This document shows positions 44,738-55,236 of a stretch of 64,000 bases of DNA, piece by piece. The DNA lies in assembly GCA_900551455.1 (NCBI GenBank), contig URVV01000002.1, positions 24,290-88,289 on the forward strand, read 5' to 3'. Under the pieces are notes generated by a model that saw nothing but the letters and a program-made list of their open reading frames with translations, was not told the origin of the DNA and did not search any database. Source of the stretch: an uncultured Mycoplasmatota bacterium. Its GTDB lineage: Bacteria; Bacillota_I; Bacilli_A; RF39; UBA660. Each line of letters begins with the position of its first letter. Within the stretch, counting starts at the first letter, position 1. The position numbers and the translations under genes are program-made.

Positions 44738-46597
44738 TTATTCCTTCTCTCTTCTATCTATTTTATAAGTTTCTACTATTTTAGCAATTCTTTCTTTTAT
44801 ATCTTTATTATTTTTGTATGAATATTCAATTAATTTTTCTAAATCATTTAAGAATTTCTTTTCATTCATTTCAATTGGTTTACCAATATGGATTAGTTTA
44901 TTAGGAGTTTCTTTTAGTCCTTCTTCATCCATAAGTAATTCTTCATATAATTTTTCGCCTGGTCTTAAGCCTGTTATTTTGATAGGCATTTCGGTAAATG
45001 GTTCATAGCCTTTAAAACGAATTATTTTTTTTGCTAAGTCATATATTTTTATGGGTTTTCCCATATCTAAGACGAAGATTTCTCCACCTTCAGCATATAC
45101 AAAGGCTTGAAGGATTAGTGATACTGCTTCAGGAATTGTCATAAAGAATCTGGTAATATCTTTGTGAGTTACAGTTACTGGTCCGCCTTCTTCGATTTGC
45201 TTTAAAAATAGTGGGATGACGCTTCCATTTGACCCTAGGACGTTACCAAATCTTACAGCAACATAGTCGGTTTTTGATTTTTTGTTATAGGTTTGAATAA
45301 TCATTTCGCAAATTCTTTTAGTAGCTCCCATAACATTAGTTGGTCTTACGGCTTTATCTGATGAAATTAAAACAAATTTTTTGACTTTATAGATATCTGC
45401 TAATTTAACAACATTTAATGTTCCTAGGCAATTATTTTTTATGGCTTCGTTGGGACTGGCTTCCATTAAGGGAACGTGTTTATGAGCGGCAGCGTGAAAA
45501 ACATATTCTGGATGGTATTCTTTAAAAACACTTTCTACTCTGGCATAATCCCTAACAGAACCGATAATTGTTTTAAGATTTAACTTGGGATAATTTCTTA
45601 ATAACTCTTGTTCGATGTCATAGGCATTATTTTCATATATATCAAATATAATTAATTCTTCTGGTTGACATTTGGCAATTTGACGACATAATTCACTGCC
45701 GATGGATCCACCACCACCAGTTACTAGAATTACTTTGTTGCAAAGGCTTTTTGAAATTTCTTTTAAGTCTACGACAATTTCTTTTCTTCCTAAGAAGTCT
45801 TCATAAGACAATGGTCTTACTTTCTTCATCGTAGGCTTACCTACTAATTCATTTAATCCAGGAAGGGTTTTAATGGTACAATTTGTTTTTTGGCATTCAT
45901 CAATTATAATGTTTAAATTTTCTCTTCCGATGGAGGGCATTGCAATAATTATTTCTTCAATGTTATAATTTTCAACGGCTTTTTCAATATATTCTCGATT
46001 GCCAACAACAGGAATATTTTTGATATAGCTACCAATTTTATTTTTGTCGTCATCGATAATACAACAAATTTTATTGTTAAAATTTACTTTATTATTATAT
46101 ATTTCAGTGATAAGCATTCTTCCGGCTTCGCCAGCACCGATAATCATTGTGTTAGTTAAACCACTTTTTTCGTGGTAATAATCTTTTATTACTCTAGCAA
46201 TACGGTATGAATATCTAATTGCTCCGATAAAAATATATAGTAGGAATAGTTCAATTATATAGAAACTTCTTGGTAAGTTAACTTCTAATATTTGTTTATA
46301 TAGAAATGATATTATTTCATAGATACTACAGGAAATAATAATATTAATTGTTTCATTAATTGAAGCATATGACCACATACTTTTATATAATCTAAATATA
46401 GAGAAAATGCAAATTAGGATTAATGAATCTGTAAATAGATATTTATATATATTGTTAATATAATTTTGTTCTAAGTGAAAATCCAATCTAAGTGCTAACG
46501 CTAAAAAAGAACATAGTGTTAATGCTAAAACATCTAGTATTATAAACATTATTATTCTTATTCTTTTTTTATTTAAAAAATTTTTTAATTTAGCCAT
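44738..46597 (-). CDS. capD: CapD/PglF-type membrane-bound UDP-GlcNAc 4,6-dehydratase
   Basis: Four N-terminal TM segments and two Rossmann regions (IIGAGEAG; VTGGGGSIGSEL). AAHKHVPLME and MGATKR are also present. Confidence 0.85.
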   Translation of the reverse strand: MAKLKNFLNKKRIRIIMFIILDVLALTLCSFLALALRLDFHLEQNYINNIYKYLFTDSLILICIFSIFRLYKSMWSYASINETINIIISCSIYEIISFLYKQILEVNLPRSFYIIELFLLYIFIGAIRYSYRIARVIKDYYHEKSGLTNTMIIGAGEAGRMLITEIYNNKVNFNNKICCIIDDDKNKIGSYIKNIPVVGNREYIEKAVENYNIEEIIIAMPSIGRENLNIIIDECQKTNCTIKTLPGLNELVGKPTMKKVRPLSYEDFLGRKEIVVDLKEISKSLCNKVILVTGGGGSIGSELCRQIAKCQPEELIIFDIYENNAYDIEQELLRNYPKLNLKTIIGSVRDYARVESVFKEYHPEYVFHAAAHKHVPLMEASPNEAIKNNCLGTLNVVKLADIYKVKKFVLISSDKAVRPTNVMGATKRICEMIIQTYNKKSKTDYVAVRFGNVLGSNGSVIPLFLKQIEEGGPVTVTHKDITRFFMTIPEAVSLILQAFVYAEGGEIFVLDMGKPIKIYDLAKKIIRFKGYEPFTEMPIKITGLRPGEKLYEELLMDEEGLKETPNKLIHIGKPIEMNEKKFLNDLEKLIEYSYKNNKDIKERIAKIVETYKIDRREKE

Positions 46598-46610
46598 TGC
46601 AATTCAACCT

Positions 46611-47480
46611 TTACTTTCCTTTCTTTAATAGTAACAATCCTAATACTAGGAAAAATGTTAAAATTATTATTAATATTAACCAAGTCCCTTGATAATTATT
46701 TTTTTCTTTAAAAACATCATCATCTATTTTTACGTGTTCAACTTCTTTTAAAACTTCTACTTTTATAGTATATTCTTGGGTATGTTTTTCATCGTCAGTT
46801 ACTTTTATGGTTATTTTATTATCAGTTAATTCTGATATTTTTTGATTAGATACTTCTATTTTGTAATTATCTTTTATAGCAATAGGCTTTAGATCTAATT
46901 CTTGAATATCATTTTTAATAACTACTTTATACTCATAGACGTTATTTTCTAAGTTTATTTTTACTATTTTAGAATCGATGGATTTTAGGAGATTATAGTT
47001 TTTATCTTTATTATCATCTTTGGTGTCTTCCTTAGTTTCTTGCTTTGTGACAATACTTATTTCTATATTTTTACTGTTTAGTCTTATGGTTTTTCCTGAT
47101 TCGGTAATAGCAGTGGCATTTTGAAGATTAATTGTTCCGGATTTATCTTTGGGGTTACTTCTTGTACTGATAACAACTTGACCTAATAATACTTGCCCTT
47201 TAGCACTAGTACTAAGAGTTAATTTGTGATGAGGTCCATTTGGATTAGTATCAGTTATTCCACTGTTAGATTTAAAATTAGCGGGAATATCATATGTAGT
47301 AAAATATAAGTCAAATTCAACGGCAGTTATATTTTCTTCAACGTTAGCATATAATTCAACTCTTTTTTCCTGACTAATATTCATACTGATATTTTCTTCA
47401 TTTACTGTTAAGGCTAAAACATTATTAGAATTGATTGTTATAATTATAATAGCAAAAATTATTGTTAATAGTCTTTTCAT
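46611..47480 (-). CDS. Secreted, C-terminally anchored protein with beta-sandwich (cohesin/cadherin-like) repeats; first gene of the glycan operon
   Basis: It has a signal peptide and a C-terminal TM segment. An NYNLLKSI...EYKVVI...EYTIKV module resembles cadherin-like beta-sandwich domains. It lies 13 nt upstream of capD. Confidence 0.4.
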   Translation of the reverse strand: MKRLLTIIFAIIIITINSNNVLALTVNEENISMNISQEKRVELYANVEENITAVEFDLYFTTYDIPANFKSNSGITDTNPNGPHHKLTLSTSAKGQVLLGQVVISTRSNPKDKSGTINLQNATAITESGKTIRLNSKNIEISIVTKQETKEDTKDDNKDKNYNLLKSIDSKIVKINLENNVYEYKVVIKNDIQELDLKPIAIKDNYKIEVSNQKISELTDNKITIKVTDDEKHTQEYTIKVEVLKEVEHVKIDDDVFKEKNNYQGTWLILIIILTFFLVLGLLLLKKGK

Positions 47481-47504
47481 ATATAATCACTCTACCTAAA
47501 TATA

Positions 47505-47533
47505 ATTATAAACATTTAGTTAAAACTAGTCAA
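47505..47533 (-). promoter_or_regulatory. sigma-A type promoter of the glycan operon
   Basis: On the minus strand: TTGACT (47528-47533), 17-nt spacer, TATAAT (47505-47510), 25 nt upstream of the ATG at 47480. Confidence 0.55.
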
Positions 47534-47577
47534 GGCTAAATAAGAAAATTAGCGACATTTGTAAATTTAATATATGG

Positions 47578-47604
47578 AAAAACTAGGAATTTTTTCCTAG
47601 TTTT
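47578..47604 (-). terminator. Terminator after spoIVB
   Basis: Stem AAAACTAGGAA/TTCCTAGTTTT, 4-nt loop, overlapping the spoIVB stop. Confidence 0.55.
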
Positions 47605-48568
47605 CGGCTTCTTCTAACATATTGGTAATAAATATTCCATATCCTTTATTTGTCTTGTCTACTAGAACGTAGTTTACGGCACCAATTATATTATCATTTT
47701 GAATAATTGGACTACCACTCATACCTTGAACTATTCCACCAGTTTTTTCAAGTAAAGTTTTGTCGGTGATTTCAAATAAAATGTTTTTTGTTTTAGAATT
47801 GTCATTAATTTTTAGGATGTTAATATCAAATTCTTCTACTTTGCTTCCACTAATTGTAGTTAGAATTTTGGCACTACCTAATTTTATTTCGTTGGAGGTG
47901 ACAACTTTATATAATTTGGCAGTAGGGATTTCTTTTGTGTATGTACCAAATATTCCACTTTGGGTATTTTCTTTTACTTCACCAAAGACATTAGATGAGT
48001 CACTTCTGGCATTTTTTTCACCAGGTGAACCATCTTTACTTTTAGTAATTCCAGTGATGGTTGATTTAAAGATAGTACCATTTTTAGTACTAAATTTAGT
48101 TTTAGTAGTTTTTTCAATTATTTCGTGGCCTAGGGCACCGAAAGTTTTATTCTCTTTATCAATATAAGTAAGTGTAGCTACTCCTCTTATAGTGTCTTTT
48201 ATATATAATCCTGTTCGGTATTCATCATCTTCTTTATATAGTTTAATGTTTGCTTGATATTCTTTGTCATTTCTTATATAGGTTATAGTAACATTATCTT
48301 TGTTTATCTCATTAATTATTTTGCTAACATCTAAAACACTTGAGACGGATTGATTATTTATTTTGGTTATTTTATCACCTATTTTTAAATCTGTATCTTT
48401 TAAAATGTTATGAGTGCCAATATCATATGAACCTACGATTAGAACGTGATCGGCTTTTAATTCAATGCCAATACTTTCTCCGGAGGCAATAATATAATCA
48501 GAATATGCAAAGACGGATAAGGGAATAAATAAGTATAGAAGAAGTAATGAGAAAGTAAATTTCTTCAT
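47597..48568 (-). CDS. spoIVB: SpoIVB peptidase (S55 signalling serine protease)
   Basis: Signal/TM segment and a PDZ-like region (GDKITKINNQSV). The catalytic region reads GALGHEI ... GIVQGMSGSPII. Confidence 0.85.
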   Translation of the reverse strand: MKKFTFSLLLLYLFIPLSVFAYSDYIIASGESIGIELKADHVLIVGSYDIGTHNILKDTDLKIGDKITKINNQSVSSVLDVSKIINEINKDNVTITYIRNDKEYQANIKLYKEDDEYRTGLYIKDTIRGVATLTYIDKENKTFGALGHEIIEKTTKTKFSTKNGTIFKSTITGITKSKDGSPGEKNARSDSSNVFGEVKENTQSGIFGTYTKEIPTAKLYKVVTSNEIKLGSAKILTTISGSKVEEFDINILKINDNSKTKNILFEITDKTLLEKTGGIVQGMSGSPIIQNDNIIGAVNYVLVDKTNKGYGIFITNMLEEAEN

Positions 48569-48730
48569 AGTCTATCACTCCTTAAGACTACATTACTATT
48601 GTGGTTAATTAATTAAAAGTTATAAGATGTAAAAATTGGTGCACTTTAATAATATGGTTATTTAAATTTTTATTTATTTTTTTAATTTTTACTTTTACTA
48701 TTATTCTATTTTTTACAAAATTAAAAATAG

Positions 48731-48780
48731 AAACTACTAAGATAATCTATATTATTATTTTGGTAGTTTATTTGTTTTTT
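48731..48780 (+). repeat. 16-bp-stem hairpin plus T-run; copy A of a duplicated 27-nt sequence
   Basis: AAACTACTAAGATAAT / ATTATTTTGGTAGTTT (two G-U pairs on the plus strand), 7-nt loop, then ATTTGTTTTTT. 48739-48765 is 26/27 identical to 49327-49353. Confidence 0.6.
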
Positions 48781-48907
48781 ATAAGAATTATTTTGTTCTT
48801 TTTTGAGAATCTTCTTATAAAAGTATTACTACAAAAACTAATTTTTTCTTTTTATTATTATTCTTTTTTAGATAATAAAATATAAATTAATTCATAAAAT
48901 TAATTGG

Positions 48908-49269
48908 GTGATTATTTTGTTATATCCATTTATTTTAACTAGTTTAGCTGGTTTATCTACTTTACTTGGAACACTACCAATTTTTGTTAAAATTAAAGAT
49001 AGTAATAAGTTGATAGGTGCAGGTCTTTCTTTTGCTTCAGGTGTTATGATATGTATATCTATTATGGATTTAATACCAGAATCTATTAATTATTTGAGGG
49101 GTAATTTTAAGGGAATAGTAGTTATTTTACTGTCTTTTGTTACTCTTATATTAGGAATGGTTATTTCTTCTTTTATGGATAAGACAATTGATAAATTTAG
49201 TGAGGGAAATAGTTTATATAAGACTGGTATTTTATCAATGATAGCAATTATACTGCACAATATTCCGGA
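48908..49269 (+). pseudogene. zupT: zupT (ZIP-family zinc transporter), 5' fragment, interrupted after ...ILHNIPE
   Basis: The N-terminal 121 aa align with the ZupT N-half (TLLG..., GVMICISIMDLIPES, ILHNIPE). The ORF then reads 7 unrelated codons (DCISYVS) and stops at 49294. Confidence 0.8.
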
Positions 49270-49324
49270 AGATTGCATAAGTTATGTATCATAAAAAATA
49301 TAATATTGGTTAAAAATAAAAATC

Positions 49325-49360
49325 CCAAGATAATATATATTATTATTTTGGTATTTTTTT
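49325..49360. terminator. Bidirectional terminator downstream of the toxin gene; copy B of the duplicated 27-nt sequence
   Basis: Stem CCAAGATAAT/ATTATTTTGG, 7-nt loop, with T-runs on both strands. Confidence 0.6.
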
Positions 49361-49375
49361 CTCTAAATATAGGTT

Positions 49376-49846
49376 CTATTTTAATTCTTCAAGCATTTGC
49401 TTTTTAATTTTATCAATATCGGTAAAAAACAAATTTACACCTTTAGATTTTAATTTTAATAAATATTTAAAATTTTGTAGTATCTCATCTTTTAATGTTT
49501 CAACAACCTTAGCAGGTTTACCATTGTCAAGTAAATGTTCATGATCGATATATTTTTCTAAAGTAGGAAAAGCATTTTGTAATAAGACCACTGAATCTTT
49601 ACCTAAGATTTCTCTAATAAGTATAGTATCACAGCGACCATATTTTTTCATTTTATTATCTAAAATTTTTCTATATTTATCAACTTTACTACTTAATGGA
49701 ATAAACCATAATATATCTTTATCTTTAATAGTGAAATATGTTGGACGCTTTTTTCCACGTTCATGATTTGTCATTAAATTATCATCATTTACAACATCAA
49801 AATATTTATCTTTTATATGATATAAATAACCTGTTTTAATTTTCAT
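49376..49846 (-). CDS. Type III toxin-antitoxin system toxin (ToxN/AbiQ/CptN-superfamily endoribonuclease)
   Basis: 156 aa. The N-terminus YLYHIKDKYFDVVNDDNLMTN...RPTYF...ILWFIPLSSKVDKY resembles ToxN/AbiQ-like toxins (compare ToxN YLAPLTSPK). It follows the canonical promoter, tandem repeats and terminator layout. Confidence 0.7.
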   Translation of the reverse strand: MKIKTGYLYHIKDKYFDVVNDDNLMTNHERGKKRPTYFTIKDKDILWFIPLSSKVDKYRKILDNKMKKYGRCDTILIREILGKDSVVLLQNAFPTLEKYIDHEHLLDNGKPAKVVETLKDEILQNFKYLLKLKSKGVNLFFTDIDKIKKQMLEELK

Positions 49847-49880
49847 AGACTATCAACTCCGATAAATAGTATACCATATA

Positions 49881-49914
49881 TAAAAAGAAAACTCTATTAT
49901 ATTAACAGAGTTTT
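49881..49914 (-). terminator. Intra-operon terminator between the antitoxin repeats and the toxin gene
   Basis: On the minus strand, stem AAAACTCT/AGAGTTTT with an 11-nt loop, followed by CTTTTTA. This is the same position as the attenuating terminator in toxIN loci. Confidence 0.6.
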
Positions 49915-49918
49915 CAAA

Positions 49919-50023
49919 ACATTTTCGTTCGGGATAATTTATTACTCGCACCACCCGAGAGCGAGAAACATTGTCGCCCGGAATAATTTATTACTCGCAC
50001 CATCCGGGAGCGAGAACATTTTC
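49919..50023 (-). ncRNA. Type III antitoxin RNA: 2.1-2.2 tandem repeats of about 48-49 nt
   Basis: Unit starts (ACATT) at 49919, 49968 and 50016. The units are nearly identical, and every substitution inside the internal 6-bp helix is compensatory. Confidence 0.7.
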
Positions 50024-50053
50024 TTATCATTGCACTTCTTCAAATGCAATAAT

Positions 50054-50082
50054 AATATACTATATTTTATGCAAAAAGTCAA
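50054..50082 (-). promoter_or_regulatory. sigma-A type promoter of the type III TA operon
   Basis: On the minus strand: TTGACT (50077-50082), 17-nt spacer, TATATT (50054-50059), about 30 nt upstream of the first repeat. Confidence 0.55.
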
Positions 50083-50379
50083 TACTTAGCATAAAACTTG
50101 CAAAATTACATTTGCATTAATATTATATGTCATTATTACTTTTTTAAACATAATTTTAATATTAGATGCAAATATGTCTATTAAGGATATTAATTTTATA
50201 ACAAGATTAGTACTTTTTTTATATTTAACCAATTCCCCAATATTATAATTTTATGGCCGTAAGTTAGGCCATAAATAGCATTTTTTACTATCTAATAAGT
50301 GTGTACGTTTGTTATACAGCCCTTATTTTATAAGAAATAAAAGTTAACAGTTATATAACAATATTTTAAAATGTAAACT

Positions 50380-50477
50380 CTTGTATTTTTAATAAACCCT
50401 TATGAGATAAGGGAAAACTCACCACTGGTGAGTTGTTTGTAAACAGGATTTATCCTGCTTTTATTTTGTTATTAAAT
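50380..50477 (+). ncRNA. Candidate small RNA or leader with three tandem hairpins, ending in a terminator
   Basis: Putative promoter TTAACA-17-TAAAAT (50344-50372). The hairpins are CCCTTAT/ATAAGGG (50407-50423), AACTCACC/GGTGAGTT (50426-50444) and CAGGA/TCCTG followed by CTTTTATTTT (50454-50477). Confidence 0.3.
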
Positions 50478-50676
50478 TGATTGTAATTTATTTATATTTA
50501 TGTTATAAAAATGGCCAAAGTTATGGCCGTAGATTTTATAAATTTTAATGATTTTTTAGATAATGGTTTTATTAAATTTATAGCAACATTATCATTTATT
50601 TTTTTATTTAATAATAAATTTTTTTTATCATAAATTTAATTAGATAGTCTTCTAATAATAAAAGGGGGTTGATAGA

Positions 50677-50790
50677 TTGAAAGAATTAAAATTTAATTTA
50701 TATTATGATAATAATGGTGATGAATTAAATACTTTATTAATTAATTATATTACTAATTATTTAAATAATTTGAGGCTTACAAATCAATGA
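50677..50790 (+). CDS. Unlisted 37-aa ORF upstream of the recombinase (candidate accessory/directionality factor)
   Basis: TTG start 8 nt after a strong AAAGGGGG SD. The product is MKELKFNLYYDNNGDELNTLLINYITNYLNNLRLTNQ. It ends 52 nt before the recombinase start on the same strand. Confidence 0.3.
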   Translation: MKELKFNLYYDNNGDELNTLLINYITNYLNNLRLTNQ

Positions 50791-50842
50791 TTATGCGTTA
50801 TCATTATTTTAACCAATATTATATTTCTATTAAGGAGGCAAT

Positions 50843-52444
50843 GTGTATAATAATATAGGAAATATAATAAAAGAATTTTATGTTGCAATTTATATAAGAC
50901 TATCTAAAGAAGATGAACGACTTGGTGAGAGTGAAAGTGTCGAGAATCAAAAGATATTACTTACTAATTATGTTAAAGAAAAAGGATTTAATCTTATAGA
51001 TATTTATATTGATGATGGTTATACTGGTACTAATTTTAATAGACCTAATTTTCAAAGATTACTTAAAGATATTGAATCAGGCAAAATAAATATGGTAATT
51101 ACTAAGGACTTATCTAGATTATCAAGAGATTATATCGGTACTGGTGAATATGTTGAGAAATGGTTTCCAGAACATAATGTTAGATATATTGCTTTAACTG
51201 ATAATATTGATACATTTTTAGATAACTCTAATAATGATATTGCACCTTTTAAAGCTATCTTAAATGATATGTATGCAAAAGATTTATCTAAGAAAATTAG
51301 AACAGCACTTCATACTATGCAGAAAGAAGGTAAGTGGGTTGGTGGATGCCCACCTTTTGGATATAAAATTGATCCAAACGATAAGAATCATTTAGCCATA
51401 GATGAAATTGAAGCACCAATTGTTAAAAGAATATTTGCCATGTTTTTAAATGGTATTAGAATCAATCAAATCAGAGATGTATTAAATAAAGAAAATATTC
51501 CTACTTTTTCAATTACTAGAAATAGAAAATTGATGCGAAAAGGTAATGGTGGCAATATCTACGGTTATTGGTGCAATACAACTATTAAAAAAATACTTCA
51601 AAATAGACTATATATGGGTGATATGATTCAAAATAGGCGTCAAAGATTAAGTTATAAATATCGTAAAATAATTTGTAATACTAAAGATAAATGGATAATT
51701 GTTCCTAGTACTCATGATCCAATTATATCTAAAGAAGAATTTGATAAAACACAAAAATTATTACCAAAGCAACGCCAAAGAAATGATAAAAAAGAAATAT
51801 TTTTACTTGATGGCTTACTTACTTGTGCTGATTGTGGTCATAATATAGGGATTAGGGCAAGACGATCTAATGGTAAAAGTACAACAGTATGTAATTATTA
51901 TCGCAAATATAGTAAAGAATATAGATTGTGCAGTGCTCATGGCTTTGATTATGATACATTAGAGGTTGGGATAATTAATATTATTAAAAATGTTGTTTGT
52001 CAAGTGTTAGATGAAAAATTAGAAAACAAAGTTCTAAAGAAATATCAAGATAAGTCAAGTATAAATAATTATTTTAAATCAAAAGAAAAATTAGAATATG
52101 AACTAAATAAACTTAATATGACTTTAGACAACATGTATATTGATAAATTGCAAGGAAAAATAAGTGAAGAAATGTATAATCGAATTCAAGATAAATTAAA
52201 TAATGAAATCAATATTACAAGCAATAAACTAGATGAGATTAATGATTATATAAATAAATTAAATAATGATAAAGATAATTTTGATAAAATAAGGCAAGAA
52301 ATTAGTAATTATAAGAATAAATATCCATCTCGTGACTTAATTCTTAAATTAATTAAAAATATTGCTATACACGAAGATGGAAACATTGATATTTATTTCA
52401 ACTTTAAAGAGTTGAATATTATTTATAATAACCGTGATGCATAG
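50843..52444 (+). CDS. Large serine recombinase (SpoIVCA/CcrB/TnpX-like)
   Basis: The N-terminal resolvase domain reads VAIYIRLSKEDE...SVENQ and ITKDLSRLSRD. A recombinase domain, a Cys4 zinc ribbon (CADCGH...CNYY...CSAHG) and a C-terminal coiled coil follow. AAGGAGG SD. Confidence 0.9.
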   Translation: MYNNIGNIIKEFYVAIYIRLSKEDERLGESESVENQKILLTNYVKEKGFNLIDIYIDDGYTGTNFNRPNFQRLLKDIESGKINMVITKDLSRLSRDYIGTGEYVEKWFPEHNVRYIALTDNIDTFLDNSNNDIAPFKAILNDMYAKDLSKKIRTALHTMQKEGKWVGGCPPFGYKIDPNDKNHLAIDEIEAPIVKRIFAMFLNGIRINQIRDVLNKENIPTFSITRNRKLMRKGNGGNIYGYWCNTTIKKILQNRLYMGDMIQNRRQRLSYKYRKIICNTKDKWIIVPSTHDPIISKEEFDKTQKLLPKQRQRNDKKEIFLLDGLLTCADCGHNIGIRARRSNGKSTTVCNYYRKYSKEYRLCSAHGFDYDTLEVGIINIIKNVVCQVLDEKLENKVLKKYQDKSSINNYFKSKEKLEYELNKLNMTLDNMYIDKLQGKISEEMYNRIQDKLNNEINITSNKLDEINDYINKLNNDKDNFDKIRQEISNYKNKYPSRDLILKLIKNIAIHEDGNIDIYFNFKELNIIYNNRDA

Positions 52445-52458
52445 TAAATACAACCAGA

Positions 52459-52855
52459 GGGAATTGTTACTTTTATTGTAAGTAATAGAAATATTATGTT
52501 AGGTATATCTATATGTGTAGCAATTACTTTACACAATATTCCAGAGGGAATTAGTATAGCTATTCCTATATATTATTCTACAGGTAGTAAATTTAAGGCA
52601 ATATTATATACTTTTATATCAGCTATATCAGAATTATTAGGAGCAGTTATTACGTGGCTATTTTTAGATAAATTTATTAATGATATGATATTAGGAATAT
52701 TATTTAGTTTTATTGCAGGAATAATGATTCAGATATCGATCGGGAAACTTATACCTACGGGATGTAATTATAATAAAAAAGAAGCTAAGCTATTTTTTGG
52801 AATTGGATTTTGTTTTATGATTATTAGTCTTCTACTAAATAGCTTAATTTCTTAA
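52459..52855 (+). pseudogene. zupT: zupT, 3' fragment (resumes at GIVTFIV...)
   Basis: The frame open from 52454 reads PEGIVTFIVSNRNIMLGISICVAITLHNIPEGISIAIPIYYSTGSK... It is colinear with E. coli ZupT HNFPEGIATFV...[22 protein letters not shown]. The internal ATG at 52496 has no SD. Confidence 0.8.
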
Positions 52856-53147
52856 ATATATAGGTTATACATTTACGAGTAAATTTGTTACCTTTTTCAC
52901 TAAGATTATACATTGCGTTGGTTATTTTATTCGTATAATCTTTTTTTTCGTTATCTAGATATTTTTTTATATCTATGTCATTACCGCTTTTGACATCTTC
53001 TTCAAATTCTTTAATTTTTTCATTAGTAATAATAGTTCTTTGTTGGAGTTCATACTCATAGTAACCAGAATTAGAGATATAATATGCTGAGATGAAGACA
53101 ATAATGATTAGGATAAAAATTAGTTTTATGGGATTATTTTTTTTCAT
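52824..53147 (-). CDS. Small N-terminally anchored protein downstream of spoIIP
   Basis: 107 aa with one TM segment. Its start overlaps the spoIIP stop. It occupies the position of yqxA in Bacillus, but no sequence similarity was verified. Confidence 0.45.
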   Translation of the reverse strand: MKKNNPIKLIFILIIIVFISAYYISNSGYYEYELQQRTIITNEKIKEFEEDVKSGNDIDIKKYLDNEKKDYTNKITNAMYNLSEKGNKFTRKCITYIFKKLSYLVED

Positions 53148-54126
53148 TTATATACGTAGATAATATATCAGTTAAAGCGTTTATAGTACACATAACTTCA
53201 TCAATAGTATTATCTACTCCTCCTAACTCTATTAAGATGGTATTAGGTGATATATCTTGATTATAGATACCATTTACATTTGGACCTTCTTTTTTATAAA
53301 TACCTCTACTTAATCCCGGGTAGGATGATTCAGCAATTTTATTTATTTCAGTGACTACTTCAAGATTTTTTTCCCAATTATTATGTTCTTTTCCTACGAC
53401 GAAGAGAATACGAGCATAAAGTTTATTATTAATTTTTGTGGTGGAGATATTTTTACTTACAGAGTCGCGATGAATATCAATATAGTATTTTAAACTGGAA
53501 TAGGTATTCTTTTTATCTAACATAAAGATTCTACTGGCACGATAGGAATTAGCGTGAGACCAGTTATTTAATTCTAAGAATTCTGTGAGATTGGTATCTT
53601 CAACAATAGTAGAAATGCCTACGTCAATTAGTTTTTCTTTTAATAGATAACTAGCCATTAAGACGTTTGGGGTAATTCCATATACTGAAAGATTGGCATT
53701 ATTGTAGTTTTCTAATTGATGAGAGTTATATATATATACTTGCGGATTTTTAACATCCACTTTGTTAGGATCTTCTATATAATAACTTATTTTTTTTAAT
53801 TTTTCTAAATTGGAATAGGTATCATCTTCTTCGTTATCTTGATATCCTAAAATACTTTCATTGAAGATAGTTTCGGGATTTTTAAAATCTATTTTTAAGA
53901 AGAAATTGATAGTTTTATTAATTAGTTTTGGAAGTTTATATTCGTTTTGAAAAGAGATGTTTCCTCCGTTTAAAAGGAAGTTGATAAACTCTTGGTTTGC
54001 TAGATGACTGTTATTTTTGAAAGAATAATAAAAAGTATAGGAAAATGTTAAATATAAGAGGATTATTAAGATAAAATATTTAAATTTCTTTTTCTTGGGT
54101 ACTTTCTTTAATTTCATATGAGCCAT
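53134..54126 (-). CDS. spoIIP: Stage II sporulation protein P (SpoIIP amidase/endopeptidase)
   Basis: N-terminal TM segment. VYIYNSHQLENY, YIDIHRDS and ILIELGG are present. It lies directly downstream of gpr, as in Bacillus. Confidence 0.8.
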   Translation of the reverse strand: MAHMKLKKVPKKKKFKYFILIILLYLTFSYTFYYSFKNNSHLANQEFINFLLNGGNISFQNEYKLPKLINKTINFFLKIDFKNPETIFNESILGYQDNEEDDTYSNLEKLKKISYYIEDPNKVDVKNPQVYIYNSHQLENYNNANLSVYGITPNVLMASYLLKEKLIDVGISTIVEDTNLTEFLELNNWSHANSYRASRIFMLDKKNTYSSLKYYIDIHRDSVSKNISTTKINNKLYARILFVVGKEHNNWEKNLEVVTEINKIAESSYPGLSRGIYKKEGPNVNGIYNQDISPNTILIELGGVDNTIDEVMCTINALTDILSTYINEKK

Positions 54127-54154: not shown

Positions 54155-55132
54155 TTAGTAGTGATTTATTTGTCGATGAAGAGCATTATTTATAGATGAT
54201 GATAAAATATTACTTAGTTTATCTATTATAAAGTCTATTTCAGTGGGAGTTACAATTAGATTCAATTCTGTATTGGTTAGAACTTCATCAATTAGATGTT
54301 TTTGTTCATTATCTGGTAATGATCCAAATAATCCTAATAAAGCTTCTTTATCATTTGGAGATAATTCTTGGTTGGTTAATTTATCTTTGTAATTTTTCTT
54401 CCGAAATGATAGTTTAAAGGTACTGTCGTGTTCTTTTATATATGAGATATGTTTATATAAGTATTTAATTGTATCTAGGACAATAGTTACAGAGGTGGTG
54501 ACTGTTGGGATGCCAATTGCAATAACGGGAATGCCCATAGTTTTTTTGCTTATTTCTAAGCGATTGTTCCCTACTCCAGAACCGGGGTGAATACCGGTAT
54601 CAGTTAATTGTATTGTTTTATTAATGCGATCTATTGATTTACTGGCTAAGGCATCGATAGCAATGATAAAATCTGGTTTAATAGATTTGATTAAAGATTT
54701 TATAATAATGGATGATTCGATGCCGGTATTAGCCATAACATTAGGGGTAAAACAAGATACTGGACGAATGCCTTCTTTAACTTCACCTAATGTAAATAGA
54801 TGGGCTGTTACTAGGACGTTATCAATTGTTTTGGGGCCTAGACTATCAGGAGTTGATAAACGATTACCCAAACCAATTATTAAACAGGAAGCTGAATCTT
54901 TTATTTCGTTTATAGTAAGAAGATCTTTTAGTATTTCTTCAAGATGTTTACCAACTATTTCACGTGATTCAAAATCTGTAATATCTTCGAATGATAAAGT
55001 AATATAATTGCCATCTTTTTTAGTGGTGGTAATTGTTATATTATCTATTCTTTTGGTATTATGGGGAATAGCATTATTTTCAATAATTAAATCTGTTCTT
55101 ATGTTAAACTTAGACAAATCTATTTTATGCAT
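54155..55132 (-). CDS. gpr: GPR germination protease (spore endopeptidase)
   Basis: IRTDLIIEN, IIGLGNRLSTPDSLGP, AIDALAS and GIHPGSGVGN. It is divergent from rpsT, as in Bacillus. ATG 55132 follows a GGTGA SD. Confidence 0.85.
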   Translation of the reverse strand: MHKIDLSKFNIRTDLIIENNAIPHNTKRIDNITITTTKKDGNYITLSFEDITDFESREIVGKHLEEILKDLLTINEIKDSASCLIIGLGNRLSTPDSLGPKTIDNVLVTAHLFTLGEVKEGIRPVSCFTPNVMANTGIESSIIIKSLIKSIKPDFIIAIDALASKSIDRINKTIQLTDTGIHPGSGVGNNRLEISKKTMGIPVIAIGIPTVTTSVTIVLDTIKYLYKHISYIKEHDSTFKLSFRKKNYKDKLTNQELSPNDKEALLGLFGSLPDNEQKHLIDEVLTNTELNLIVTPTEIDFIIDKLSNILSSSINNALHRQINHY

Positions 55133-55236
55133 CGTATCACCTATCAATATTTTTTACAAAAAACATTGATTTTATTTGCTTTTTTAATATTTTTTTGATA
55201 AAATGGTAAATGTGTATCGGAAGGAGATGAATTTTA

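Follow-up and report, generated by a model that had tools for sequence, protein, structure and literature searches.

Only one complex from the cptIN family, whose toxin-antitoxin systems are of type III (protein-RNA), has been solved, that of Eubacterium rectale (CptIN(Er), PDB 4RMO), and the natural role of the family has not been established. Here, we describe a locus of this family at positions 49376-50082 of a 64,000-nucleotide stretch of DNA, hereafter the window, from an uncultured Mycoplasmatota bacterium (GenBank assembly GCA_900551455.1, contig URVV01000002.1). We assign a probability of about 0.9 to the conclusion that the locus is a functional-looking cptIN module, which is a known kind of system. 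The module is the sole cargo of a small element that interrupts zupT, the gene of a ZIP metal transporter, and this element is classed as a large-serine-recombinase integrative element by its domain content, its att structure and an empty site.

The solved CptIN(Er) complex is a 2:2 ring. Its antitoxin unit, rebuilt from the published primer table, reads AAGUUUA-CCAC-UG-ACCGA-UAU-GUGG-UAUAUAAAUG-GUCGG-GUUGA. In CptI(Er), the first loop is a single nucleotide and the second is long and A-rich; cleavage takes place after GA in UUGA^AAGUUU. Rao (2015, PMC4627078) described an active site in CptN(Er) with a Ser-Ser/Thr-Arg triad, whose residues are not numbered in the paper, together with Asp81, Ser85 and Tyr104; Tyr104 coordinates the scissile adenine and stacks on G44. 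Blower (2012, PMC3401426) surveyed the family and reported repeats of 40-48 nt in 1.9-3.4 copies. The systems of that survey lie only at unremarkable chromosomal sites and none is plasmid-borne, whereas the cptIN of the window is cargo of an integrative element.

The cptIN module and its relatives

The features of the module are as follows, from the promoter to the end of the toxin gene, with a neighbouring hairpin in the last line.

50054-50082, minus strand, putative cptIN promoter TTGACT-17-TATATT (consensus scan, 10/12 matches)
49976-50023, minus strand, CptI repeat unit 1, 48 nt: GAAAAUGUU-CUCGC-U-CCCGGA-UGGU-GCGAG-UAAUAAAUUAU-UCCGGG-C
49927-49975, minus strand, CptI repeat unit 2, 49 nt, with stem 2 UCGGG/CCCGA
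49917-49926, minus strand, junction motif (GAAAAUGUU; GA(A/C)AAUGUU at 49918-49926), third copy, which closes unit 2; by analogy with CptI(Er), CptN is predicted to make its third cut here
49879-49915, minus strand, intrinsic terminator between the repeats and cptN, 13-bp stem and T run (49887-49915), -13.8 kcal/mol
49857-49860, minus strand, Shine-Dalgarno sequence GGAG of cptN, 10 nt 5' of the ATG (with the reading frame, 49376-49860)
49376-49846, minus strand, cptN toxin open reading frame (ORF), 156 aa, ATG start
49318-49358, no strand assigned, AT-rich bidirectional terminator-like hairpin (R_A) of the element backbone, with T runs on both sides

The initial annotation had described a Shine-Dalgarno sequence followed by a 156-aa ORF whose N-terminal half resembles the ToxN, AbiQ and CptN nucleases, and had proposed a search with family models. 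We found that the ORF matched NCBIfam NF047359 at 161.8 bits (E = 1e-47), with profile positions 1-150 of 150 covered. The cutoff of this equivalog model, which is named "type III toxin-antitoxin system CptIN family toxin", is 90 bits. In a PDB-wide phmmer search, the sole real match was chain A of 4RMO, which is CptN(Er) (E = 1.3e-17). Residues 4-148 of the window toxin align with residues 3-150 of CptN(Er) at 35% identity. The assignment to CptN thus stood, but the similarity spans the whole protein and is not confined to its N-terminal half.

The Pfam scan, in a library that presumably contains ToxN_toxin (PF13958), returned no family for the toxin at E values up to 1, and none of the PADLOC models matched it. 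Both libraries are without a CptN model, so that these null scans are not evidence against the CptN assignment. Because the protein matches CptN and finds no match in Pfam, we consider it to be CptN-like and not ToxN/AbiQ-like, and we class it on sequence grounds as a CptN-family toxin that does not belong to toxIN. We also mapped the active site of CptN(Er) onto the window toxin: S51/S52 correspond to S52/S53, Ser85 is kept, and Arg30 corresponds to Arg34.

The repeats were detected by Tandem Repeats Finder at 49917-50020 (period 49, 2.1 copies, 87% matches), which agrees with the initial description of about 2.1 tandem repeats of 48-49 nt. Two complete CptI units are bounded by three copies of GA(A/C)AAUGUU. 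The longer unit exceeds the range of the 2012 survey by 1 nt. The repeat region forms an island of 45% GC amid DNA of 24-27% GC. Each unit can form an H-type pseudoknot, in which stem 1 (CUCGC/GCGAG) is followed by one unpaired U, and in which an 11-nt A/U-rich loop (UAAUAAAUUAU) lies between the 3' strands of stems 1 and 2. In unit 1, stem 2 is CCCGGA/UCCGGG; six pairs are possible and five of them covary. Stem 2 of unit 2 differs from that of unit 1 by two compensatory pair changes.

The covariation was calculated from an alignment of 64 distinct repeat units taken from all loci examined. Over these units, 88% of the cells of the pseudoknot pairs are paired, and eight pairs have changed on both sides. 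The covariation score was 0.311, compared with 0.160 in shuffled alignments, and none of 500 shuffles reached it. All of the slid-register controls dropped to 25-59% paired. In each of the five stem-2 pairs, between 1 and 22 double changes were counted and hardly any cells are unpaired, and one stem-1 pair is also among those with abundant compensatory changes. The outermost pair that we had proposed (columns 17-51) was not supported. This analysis supports, at the level of sequence, an H-type pseudoknot like that of the solved CptI RNA. A permissive Rfam scan of 48500-51000 matched nothing, and we noticed no CptI family among the Rfam models.

The promoter-like sequence proposed in the initial annotation is present. 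A single match of this kind is weak evidence, since a scan of 1.9 kb of this DNA (27% GC) gave 32 promoter-like sites against 19.8 expected in shuffles. However, 59 of the 72 related loci have TTGACN-17-TANNNT upstream of their repeats, always with a spacer of 17 nt. It is this conservation at the same place with fixed spacing that makes the promoter credible. The hairpin and T run proposed between repeats and toxin gene were likewise recovered, and are found in all 72 related loci.

A second terminator, placed by the initial annotation at 49325-49360 as the end of the module, did not hold. The structure there is R_A, a weak AT-rich hairpin of the element backbone, which folds at -8.9 kcal/mol in the sense of the toxin gene and at -12.9 kcal/mol in the plus sense and fails the GC criterion of the terminator scan. 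It is kept in elements with cptIN (L016, L091) and in those without it (L084, L090, L092); L-numbers denote comparison loci or contigs from public assemblies. We rejected R_A as cptIN's own terminator because only about 6 of 80 loci have it and because sister elements lacking cptIN carry it.

The layout of the module was compared over 73 upstream regions, which are those of the window and of the 72 loci, among 80 fetched, that had enough upstream sequence. The core of the repeat unit was present in 72 of these 73, and Tandem Repeats Finder gave a period of 49-51 with 2.0-2.2 copies in 51 of them. Because the layout recurs so regularly and coincides with the GC island, it is beyond chance. Toxin clade and repeat class co-vary, as has been described for the family in published work: toxins at least 77% identical are accompanied by 49-nt units, and those at 70-76% mostly by 50/51-nt units. 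In the protein database the toxin has 2701 homologues, and in a scan of one genome per species relatives were found in 408 species representatives, nearly all of them uncultured gut bins labelled "Bacilli", "Tenericutes" or Erysipelotrichaceae.

Some relatives occur in other arrangements. In L020, L025, L065, L068 and L075, a second promoter and cptI array start within about 100 nt past the cptN stop, forming tandem modules. Several bins have two unlinked cptIN copies (for example L015 and L043, L021 and L044, L057 and L065). Our plasmid search also turned up distant relatives of CptN, at 28-43% identity, on 17 plasmids (for example NZ_CP075965.1 and NZ_CP048628.1), where each carries the annotation hypothetical protein. 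Nine of these are Clostridium records (C. perfringens in those listed); among the rest are Megamonas, Planococcus, Weissella and Fusobacterium.

The window module and CptIN(Er) (4RMO; PMC3401426, PMC4627078) have the same order of promoter (putative in the window), about two repeats, terminator and a toxin of about 155 aa. Their toxins are homologous from end to end and keep the adjacent Ser-Ser and Ser85. Their RNAs share the pseudoknot plan, in which loop 1 has 1 nt and loop 2 is long, A/U-rich and includes AUAAAU, and they share junctions in which GA is followed by an A-rich sequence and GUU. However, the units are 45 nt in E. rectale and 48/49 nt in the window, and the window module, which is known from sequence alone, belongs to an uncultured, very AT-rich, spore-forming gut Firmicute.

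The likeness to ToxIN of Pectobacterium atrosepticum, ToxIN(Bt) and AbiQ is one of common type III logic: a repeat RNA is processed by its own toxin, a terminator sets the ratio of antitoxin to toxin and, according to the literature, the toxin has a Kid-like endoribonuclease fold. By the Pfam scan, the toxins of that family show no detectable sequence match to the window toxin. ToxI consists of 5.5 repeats of 36 nt and its complex is heterohexameric, and abortive infection has been shown for ToxIN and not for cptIN. The initial choice of the cptIN class over ToxI is in agreement with the NF047359 match, the empty Pfam scan and the 48/49-nt units in about 2.1 copies.

A small element inserted in zupT

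The element and the gene that it splits comprise the following features.

48908-49267, plus strand, 5' part of zupT (ZIP transporter, PF02535), ending ...ILHNIP; gene 48908-49294
49268-52456, no strand assigned, large-serine-recombinase integrative element, 3,189 bp counting one GA crossover copy
49268-49315, no strand assigned, attL: crossover GA (49268-49269) and element-side arm AGATTGCATAAGTTATGTATCAT...ATATAATATTGGTTAAAA
49360-50203, no strand assigned, variable cargo slot, here holding cptIN only; backbone homology with L083/L084 ends at 49359 and resumes at 50204
50677-50790, plus strand, conserved 37-codon ORF (LKELKFNLYYDNNGDELNTLLINYITNYLNNLRLTNQ) with ribosome-binding site AAAGGGGG, directly upstream of the recombinase gene
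50843-52444, plus strand, large serine recombinase, 533 aa, with PF00239 (Resolvase), PF07508 (Recombinase) and PF13408 (Zn_ribbon_recom), all above cutoff
52410-52458, no strand assigned, attR: element-side arm ending CAACCA, then crossover GA (52457-52458)
52457-52855, plus strand, 3' part of zupT, EGIVTF... to the stop
Predicted junctions: attB CACAATATTCCGGAGGGAATTG; attP …ACAACCAGAAGATTGCAT…

The two parts of zupT rejoin in frame and give a ZupT of 252 aa, which is 99% identical to the intact P0241. The GA dinucleotide at which the element is inserted lies within the codons for Pro-Glu-Gly in the first HNxPEG motif. The empty site is found in L089, the contig of P0241, which comes from a different sequencing run. 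L089 matches the window at 99.6% over 45626-49269 and at 99.9% over 52454-53224, and the two segments abut at ...CACAATATTCCG-GA-GGGAATTG..., reading CCG-GA-GGG. This empty site places the crossover on GA, sets the length of the element at 3,189 bp and shows a presence/absence polymorphism within the species. L081, from another run, shows the occupied state. We also considered a crossover at CC and rejected it, because in the empty site GA is preceded by the attL base G and followed by the attR bases.

The att sites of the window are CCG-GA-AGATTG (attL) and CAACCA-GA-GGG (attR). Over the family, they read CCN-GA-AGATTG and CAAYCA-GA-RGG, and intact zupT reads CCN-GA-AGG. The reconstructed attP core, CAATCA-GA-AGATTG, is dyad-symmetric about GA. 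The attL arm is conserved in L084, L016, L090, L091 and L092. The joined-ends attP junction was not found in the JGI metagenome or IMG/VR contigs, a weak negative because the attL control occurs there in only three copies. This control shows that the element family is rare in those public contigs.

In other assemblies, homologues of the recombinase with 66-90% identity occupy this position of zupT. Among the NCBIfam models, CcrB, CcrC and XisF come nearest to the window recombinase, but its scores are far below their cutoffs (117 vs 900 bits). P0139 is a predicted protein of 668 aa that fuses a recombinase with a Zip domain, its ORF reading through attR into the 3' part of zupT; it could be either a gene-calling artefact or a real read-through product.

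The element carried by L083/L084 shares a backbone with that of the window (window 49214-49359 and 50204-52740, 76-79% nucleotide identity) and has a recombinase 75% identical. In the slot of L084, 1.6 kb with a GNAT acetyltransferase (177 aa), an ASCH protein (114 aa) and an ASCH-like ORF (142 aa) replace cptIN. The two elements differ only in the slot, and cptIN is for this reason the only cargo of the window element, as the initial annotation had stated. As a correction, the element holds the 37-codon ORF and conserved backbone hairpins besides the recombinase gene and the cargo. GNAT/ASCH cargo occurs at the same zupT site at L083:5734-7105 and L084:4074-5445, and also in L090 and L092. 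L082 has cptI repeats and an extra 128-aa ORF matching no family.

The protein of the 37-codon ORF is 83% identical in L086, 64% in L084 and 56% in L082. In L088, the region aligns at the DNA level only (AATTAAAATTTAATTTA core), and tblastn gave no match. The ORF matches no family and is too short for the ORF lists; as a guess, it is a candidate accessory factor, recombination directionality factor or regulator.

Three backbone hairpins (window 50250-50275 and 50397-50457) are conserved with L084 and have no Rfam match. There are compensatory changes between the window and L084, in one of the hairpins CTCACCACTGGTGAG vs CTAGCCACTGGCTAG, and the hairpins could be a structured RNA or protein-binding sites. 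A perfect 20-nt inverted repeat (AAATATAATATTGGTTAAAA) lies at 49296-49315 and 50807-50826, with a related motif near attR. One arm is the outer part of the element-side arm of attL, and the other ends 16 nt before the start codon of the recombinase gene. It may be an autoregulatory binding site of the recombinase or a relic att arm.

The spread of the element was compared with the relatedness of its hosts. L001 and L023 are without it, and their SpoIVB is 70-72% identical to that of the window. The host of L084 is more distant (55% for SpoIVB and ZupN), yet it carries the element with a recombinase 75% identical. At least three other lineages have copies bearing cptIN, namely L016 (toxin identity 79%, ZupN 40%), L082 (recombinase 80%) and L091, from the human gut (toxin gene cut off at the contig end, 66% identical over 95 aa; ZupN 46%). 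Because this distribution does not follow host relatedness, the comparison favours horizontal movement.

The element resembles the cassettes of the staphylococcal cassette chromosome (SCC) type and the clostridial elements Tn4451/Tn5397 in being non-conjugative, with a large serine recombinase, a conserved coding target, variable cargo and a GA dinucleotide in a dyad-symmetric joint. TnpX and TndX use a GA crossover. However, the score of the window recombinase against the Ccr models is far below cutoff, as it is against XisF. Further differences are that the window element has only one recombinase gene, that it is targeted to zupT and not to orfX/rlmH, and that it carries a toxin-antitoxin module and not a resistance gene.

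Linkage of cptIN and zupT also occurs in a second configuration. In six loci (L001, L002, L018, L023, L025 and L045), cptIN lies directly upstream of an intact zupT and is divergently transcribed; of these loci, L001 and L023 show synteny with the window. The module is bordered by direct repeats that consist of the 5' end of zupT, with a length of 33 bp in L001 (5612-5644, 6516-6548) and about 137 bp in L002 (5547-5683, 6521-6657). As one candidate explanation, a single-crossover insertion of a circle with cptIN and a zupT fragment would yield such repeats. The derivation of the window layout from the L001 type by inversion was rejected, because the orientations of the zupT fragments and cptIN do not fit.

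A second copy of the backbone hairpin, R_B (ACCAAAATAATAATATA.ATTATCTT.G, about 85% identical), lies outside the element at window 48715-48763. It is located in the interval that separates the divergent genes spoIVB and zupT, a position occupied by cptIN in L001 and L023, and it is also present in the empty-site contig L089. R_B probably remains from an earlier module or element end.

The neighbours of the site are sporulation genes, namely a SpoIVB peptidase (47597-48568; 310 bits, above cutoff) and genes for SpoIIP (53134-54126) and a germination-protease (gpr)-like protein (54155-55147). The host, of 26.8% G+C, is by these genes a very AT-rich spore-former. In public data, its closest relatives are bins of uncultured gut bacteria that carry the label Bacilli.

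Proposed action and role of the module

By analogy with CptIN(Er), the module would act as follows. One sigma-70-type promoter would produce a transcript that starts with the two complete 48/49-nt CptI repeats, each folding into its pseudoknot. Only a minority of transcripts would pass the strong terminator after the repeats and reach cptN, leaving the antitoxin RNA in excess. CptN, whose endoribonuclease activity and toxicity we infer by homology with E. rectale CptIN, would cut the precursor at the three GA(A/C)AAUGUU junctions. The two released pseudoknots would hold CptN inactive, probably in a 2:2 ring. If transcription of the module stopped, the antitoxin RNA would disappear sooner than CptN, and the toxin set free in this way would cut cellular RNA, so that the cell would be arrested or killed.

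The most likely role of this cptIN is that it stabilises the element, by killing or arresting cells that lose the non-replicating excised form. The excised element would have no replication function, and in cells losing it cptI would no longer be transcribed, a situation in which type III systems are expected to act. In published work, cptIN(Er) raised the retention of an unstable plasmid in E. coli from about 50% to 100% (PMC4627078, PMC5086642). Two cptIN systems had no effect on the six coliphages tested (2012, PMC3401426), and a later screen of CptIN(Er) against more than 200 coliphages also showed no effect. Because plasmid retention has been shown and phage resistance has not, stabilisation has a precedent in this family and abortive infection has none. 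The initial annotation had attributed both addiction and anti-phage action to such modules. The former agrees with the published plasmid stabilisation, but abortive infection has been shown for no cptIN system.

Several observations count against a working cptIN that stabilises its carrier. Tyr104 of CptN(Er) is replaced by His104 in the window toxin, Arg53 by Lys54, and Asp81 has no aligned counterpart (one-residue gap), so that the cleavage specificity of the predicted nuclease, and in principle also its activity, may differ from those of CptN(Er). These substitutions look clade-specific and not like decay, because Lys54, His104 and Ser52 are invariant, and Ser53 nearly so, in an alignment of 16 clade members. 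The AlphaFold2 model of the toxin was unusable (predicted local distance difference test 39, predicted template modelling score 0.25), its input of 16 sequences, all hits at least 79% identical, being too shallow an alignment. None of the Rfam, Pfam and PADLOC models matches the locus. About 70 of 80 cptIN relatives lie outside any such element, and the module thus does not need it. The element-free L089 belongs to the same species, and at least some lineages can therefore live with the element lost or absent. Finally, we infer, and do not observe, the processing sites, stoichiometry, toxicity, relative stabilities and addiction role at this locus.

A second, tentative explanation is that cptIN is chiefly anti-phage cargo. 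Transcription shut-off by a phage would deplete CptI and free CptN in an abortive infection, and the slot would be a small defence hotspot, with stabilisation as a by-product. Phage infection is indeed aborted by ToxIN and TenpIN, the sister families of type III (PMC3401426). An exchangeable cargo slot is also known from defence hotspots of mobile elements, and the occurrence of the module in hundreds of species representatives, with several or tandem copies per genome, fits diversifying defence genes. However, the published phage tests of cptIN were negative throughout, although all of them were made in a foreign host, E. coli. Moreover, the PADLOC models do not match the toxin, a tblastn search with it found no relative in 50,697 phage records, and the GNAT and ASCH proteins of the alternative cargo do not make up any recognised defence system. 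The module may also have a role triggered by phage, which would not exclude stabilisation of the element.

It is rather unlikely that the element is a domesticated gene-intervening element of the skin, gin or fdxN type, excised in the mother cell during development to restore zupT, with cptIN as an incidental passenger. The skin, SPbeta, vfbin and gin elements (PMC5595907, PMC4191935, PMC5025042) are similar in that a large serine recombinase element splits a host gene that excision restores, and in having a small ORF beside the recombinase gene and a spore-forming host. Serine-recombinase intervening elements are known in spore-formers. Excision would restore zupT exactly here, sporulation genes flank the site, and the 37-codon ORF before the recombinase gene is placed like the directionality factors of gin and skin(Cd). 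However, those elements measure tens of kb against 3.2 kb in the window, which also differs in its single exchangeable cargo slot and in its target. The target is a ZIP metal transporter gene, not known to be sporulation-specific, and no sporulation promoter was identified. Furthermore, the element is polymorphic within the species and its distribution does not track its hosts: the closer L001 and L023 lack it, and distant hosts carry it with recombinases that are 75% identical where the flanks are 55%, which points to horizontal movement.

That the locus is an inactive relic, with a non-functional ORF or with repeats that merely form a structured leader, is very improbable, since in spite of the active-site differences (Y104H, R53K, no equivalent of D81) and of the truncated cptN genes with intact repeats known in the family (PMC3401426), the ORF has its full length and recurs at 99% identity in another sample of the species, the invariant residues of the clade indicate purifying selection and not decay, both units keep the pseudoknot through compensatory changes, and promoter and terminator are intact and conserved.

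Significance for the family and its carrier

The toxin-antitoxin call itself is ordinary annotation, as the equivalog model already exists at NCBI; the element family merits more attention. We found no paper on a type III system as cargo of such an element in a limited literature search. With some reserve, we suggest that the window element belongs to an undescribed family of minimal cassettes of about 3-4 kb, inserted at the universally conserved sequence that encodes the HNxPEG motif of zupT in uncultured spore-forming gut Firmicutes and made up of a recombinase gene, a tiny ORF and one exchangeable slot. In such cassettes, cptIN might be the addiction module that lets a non-replicating, non-conjugative element persist despite inactivating a transporter gene, and the copies of cptIN beside intact zupT might record exchange of modules through circular intermediates. 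A recombinase with clear attB, attP, attL and attR sites in a conserved coding motif might also interest collectors of large serine integrases.

The locus also anchors a large cptIN clade (2701 proteins, 408 species representatives), mostly from uncultured gut bacteria, with 49-51-nt units and His in place of the adenine-coordinating Tyr. That type III systems stabilise mobile elements is no more than hinted at in the literature, by assays of plasmid retention in E. coli. Being the only cargo of a tiny element that is polymorphic within its species, this cptIN would offer a natural setting in which to study whether a type III system stabilises a chromosomal mobile element.

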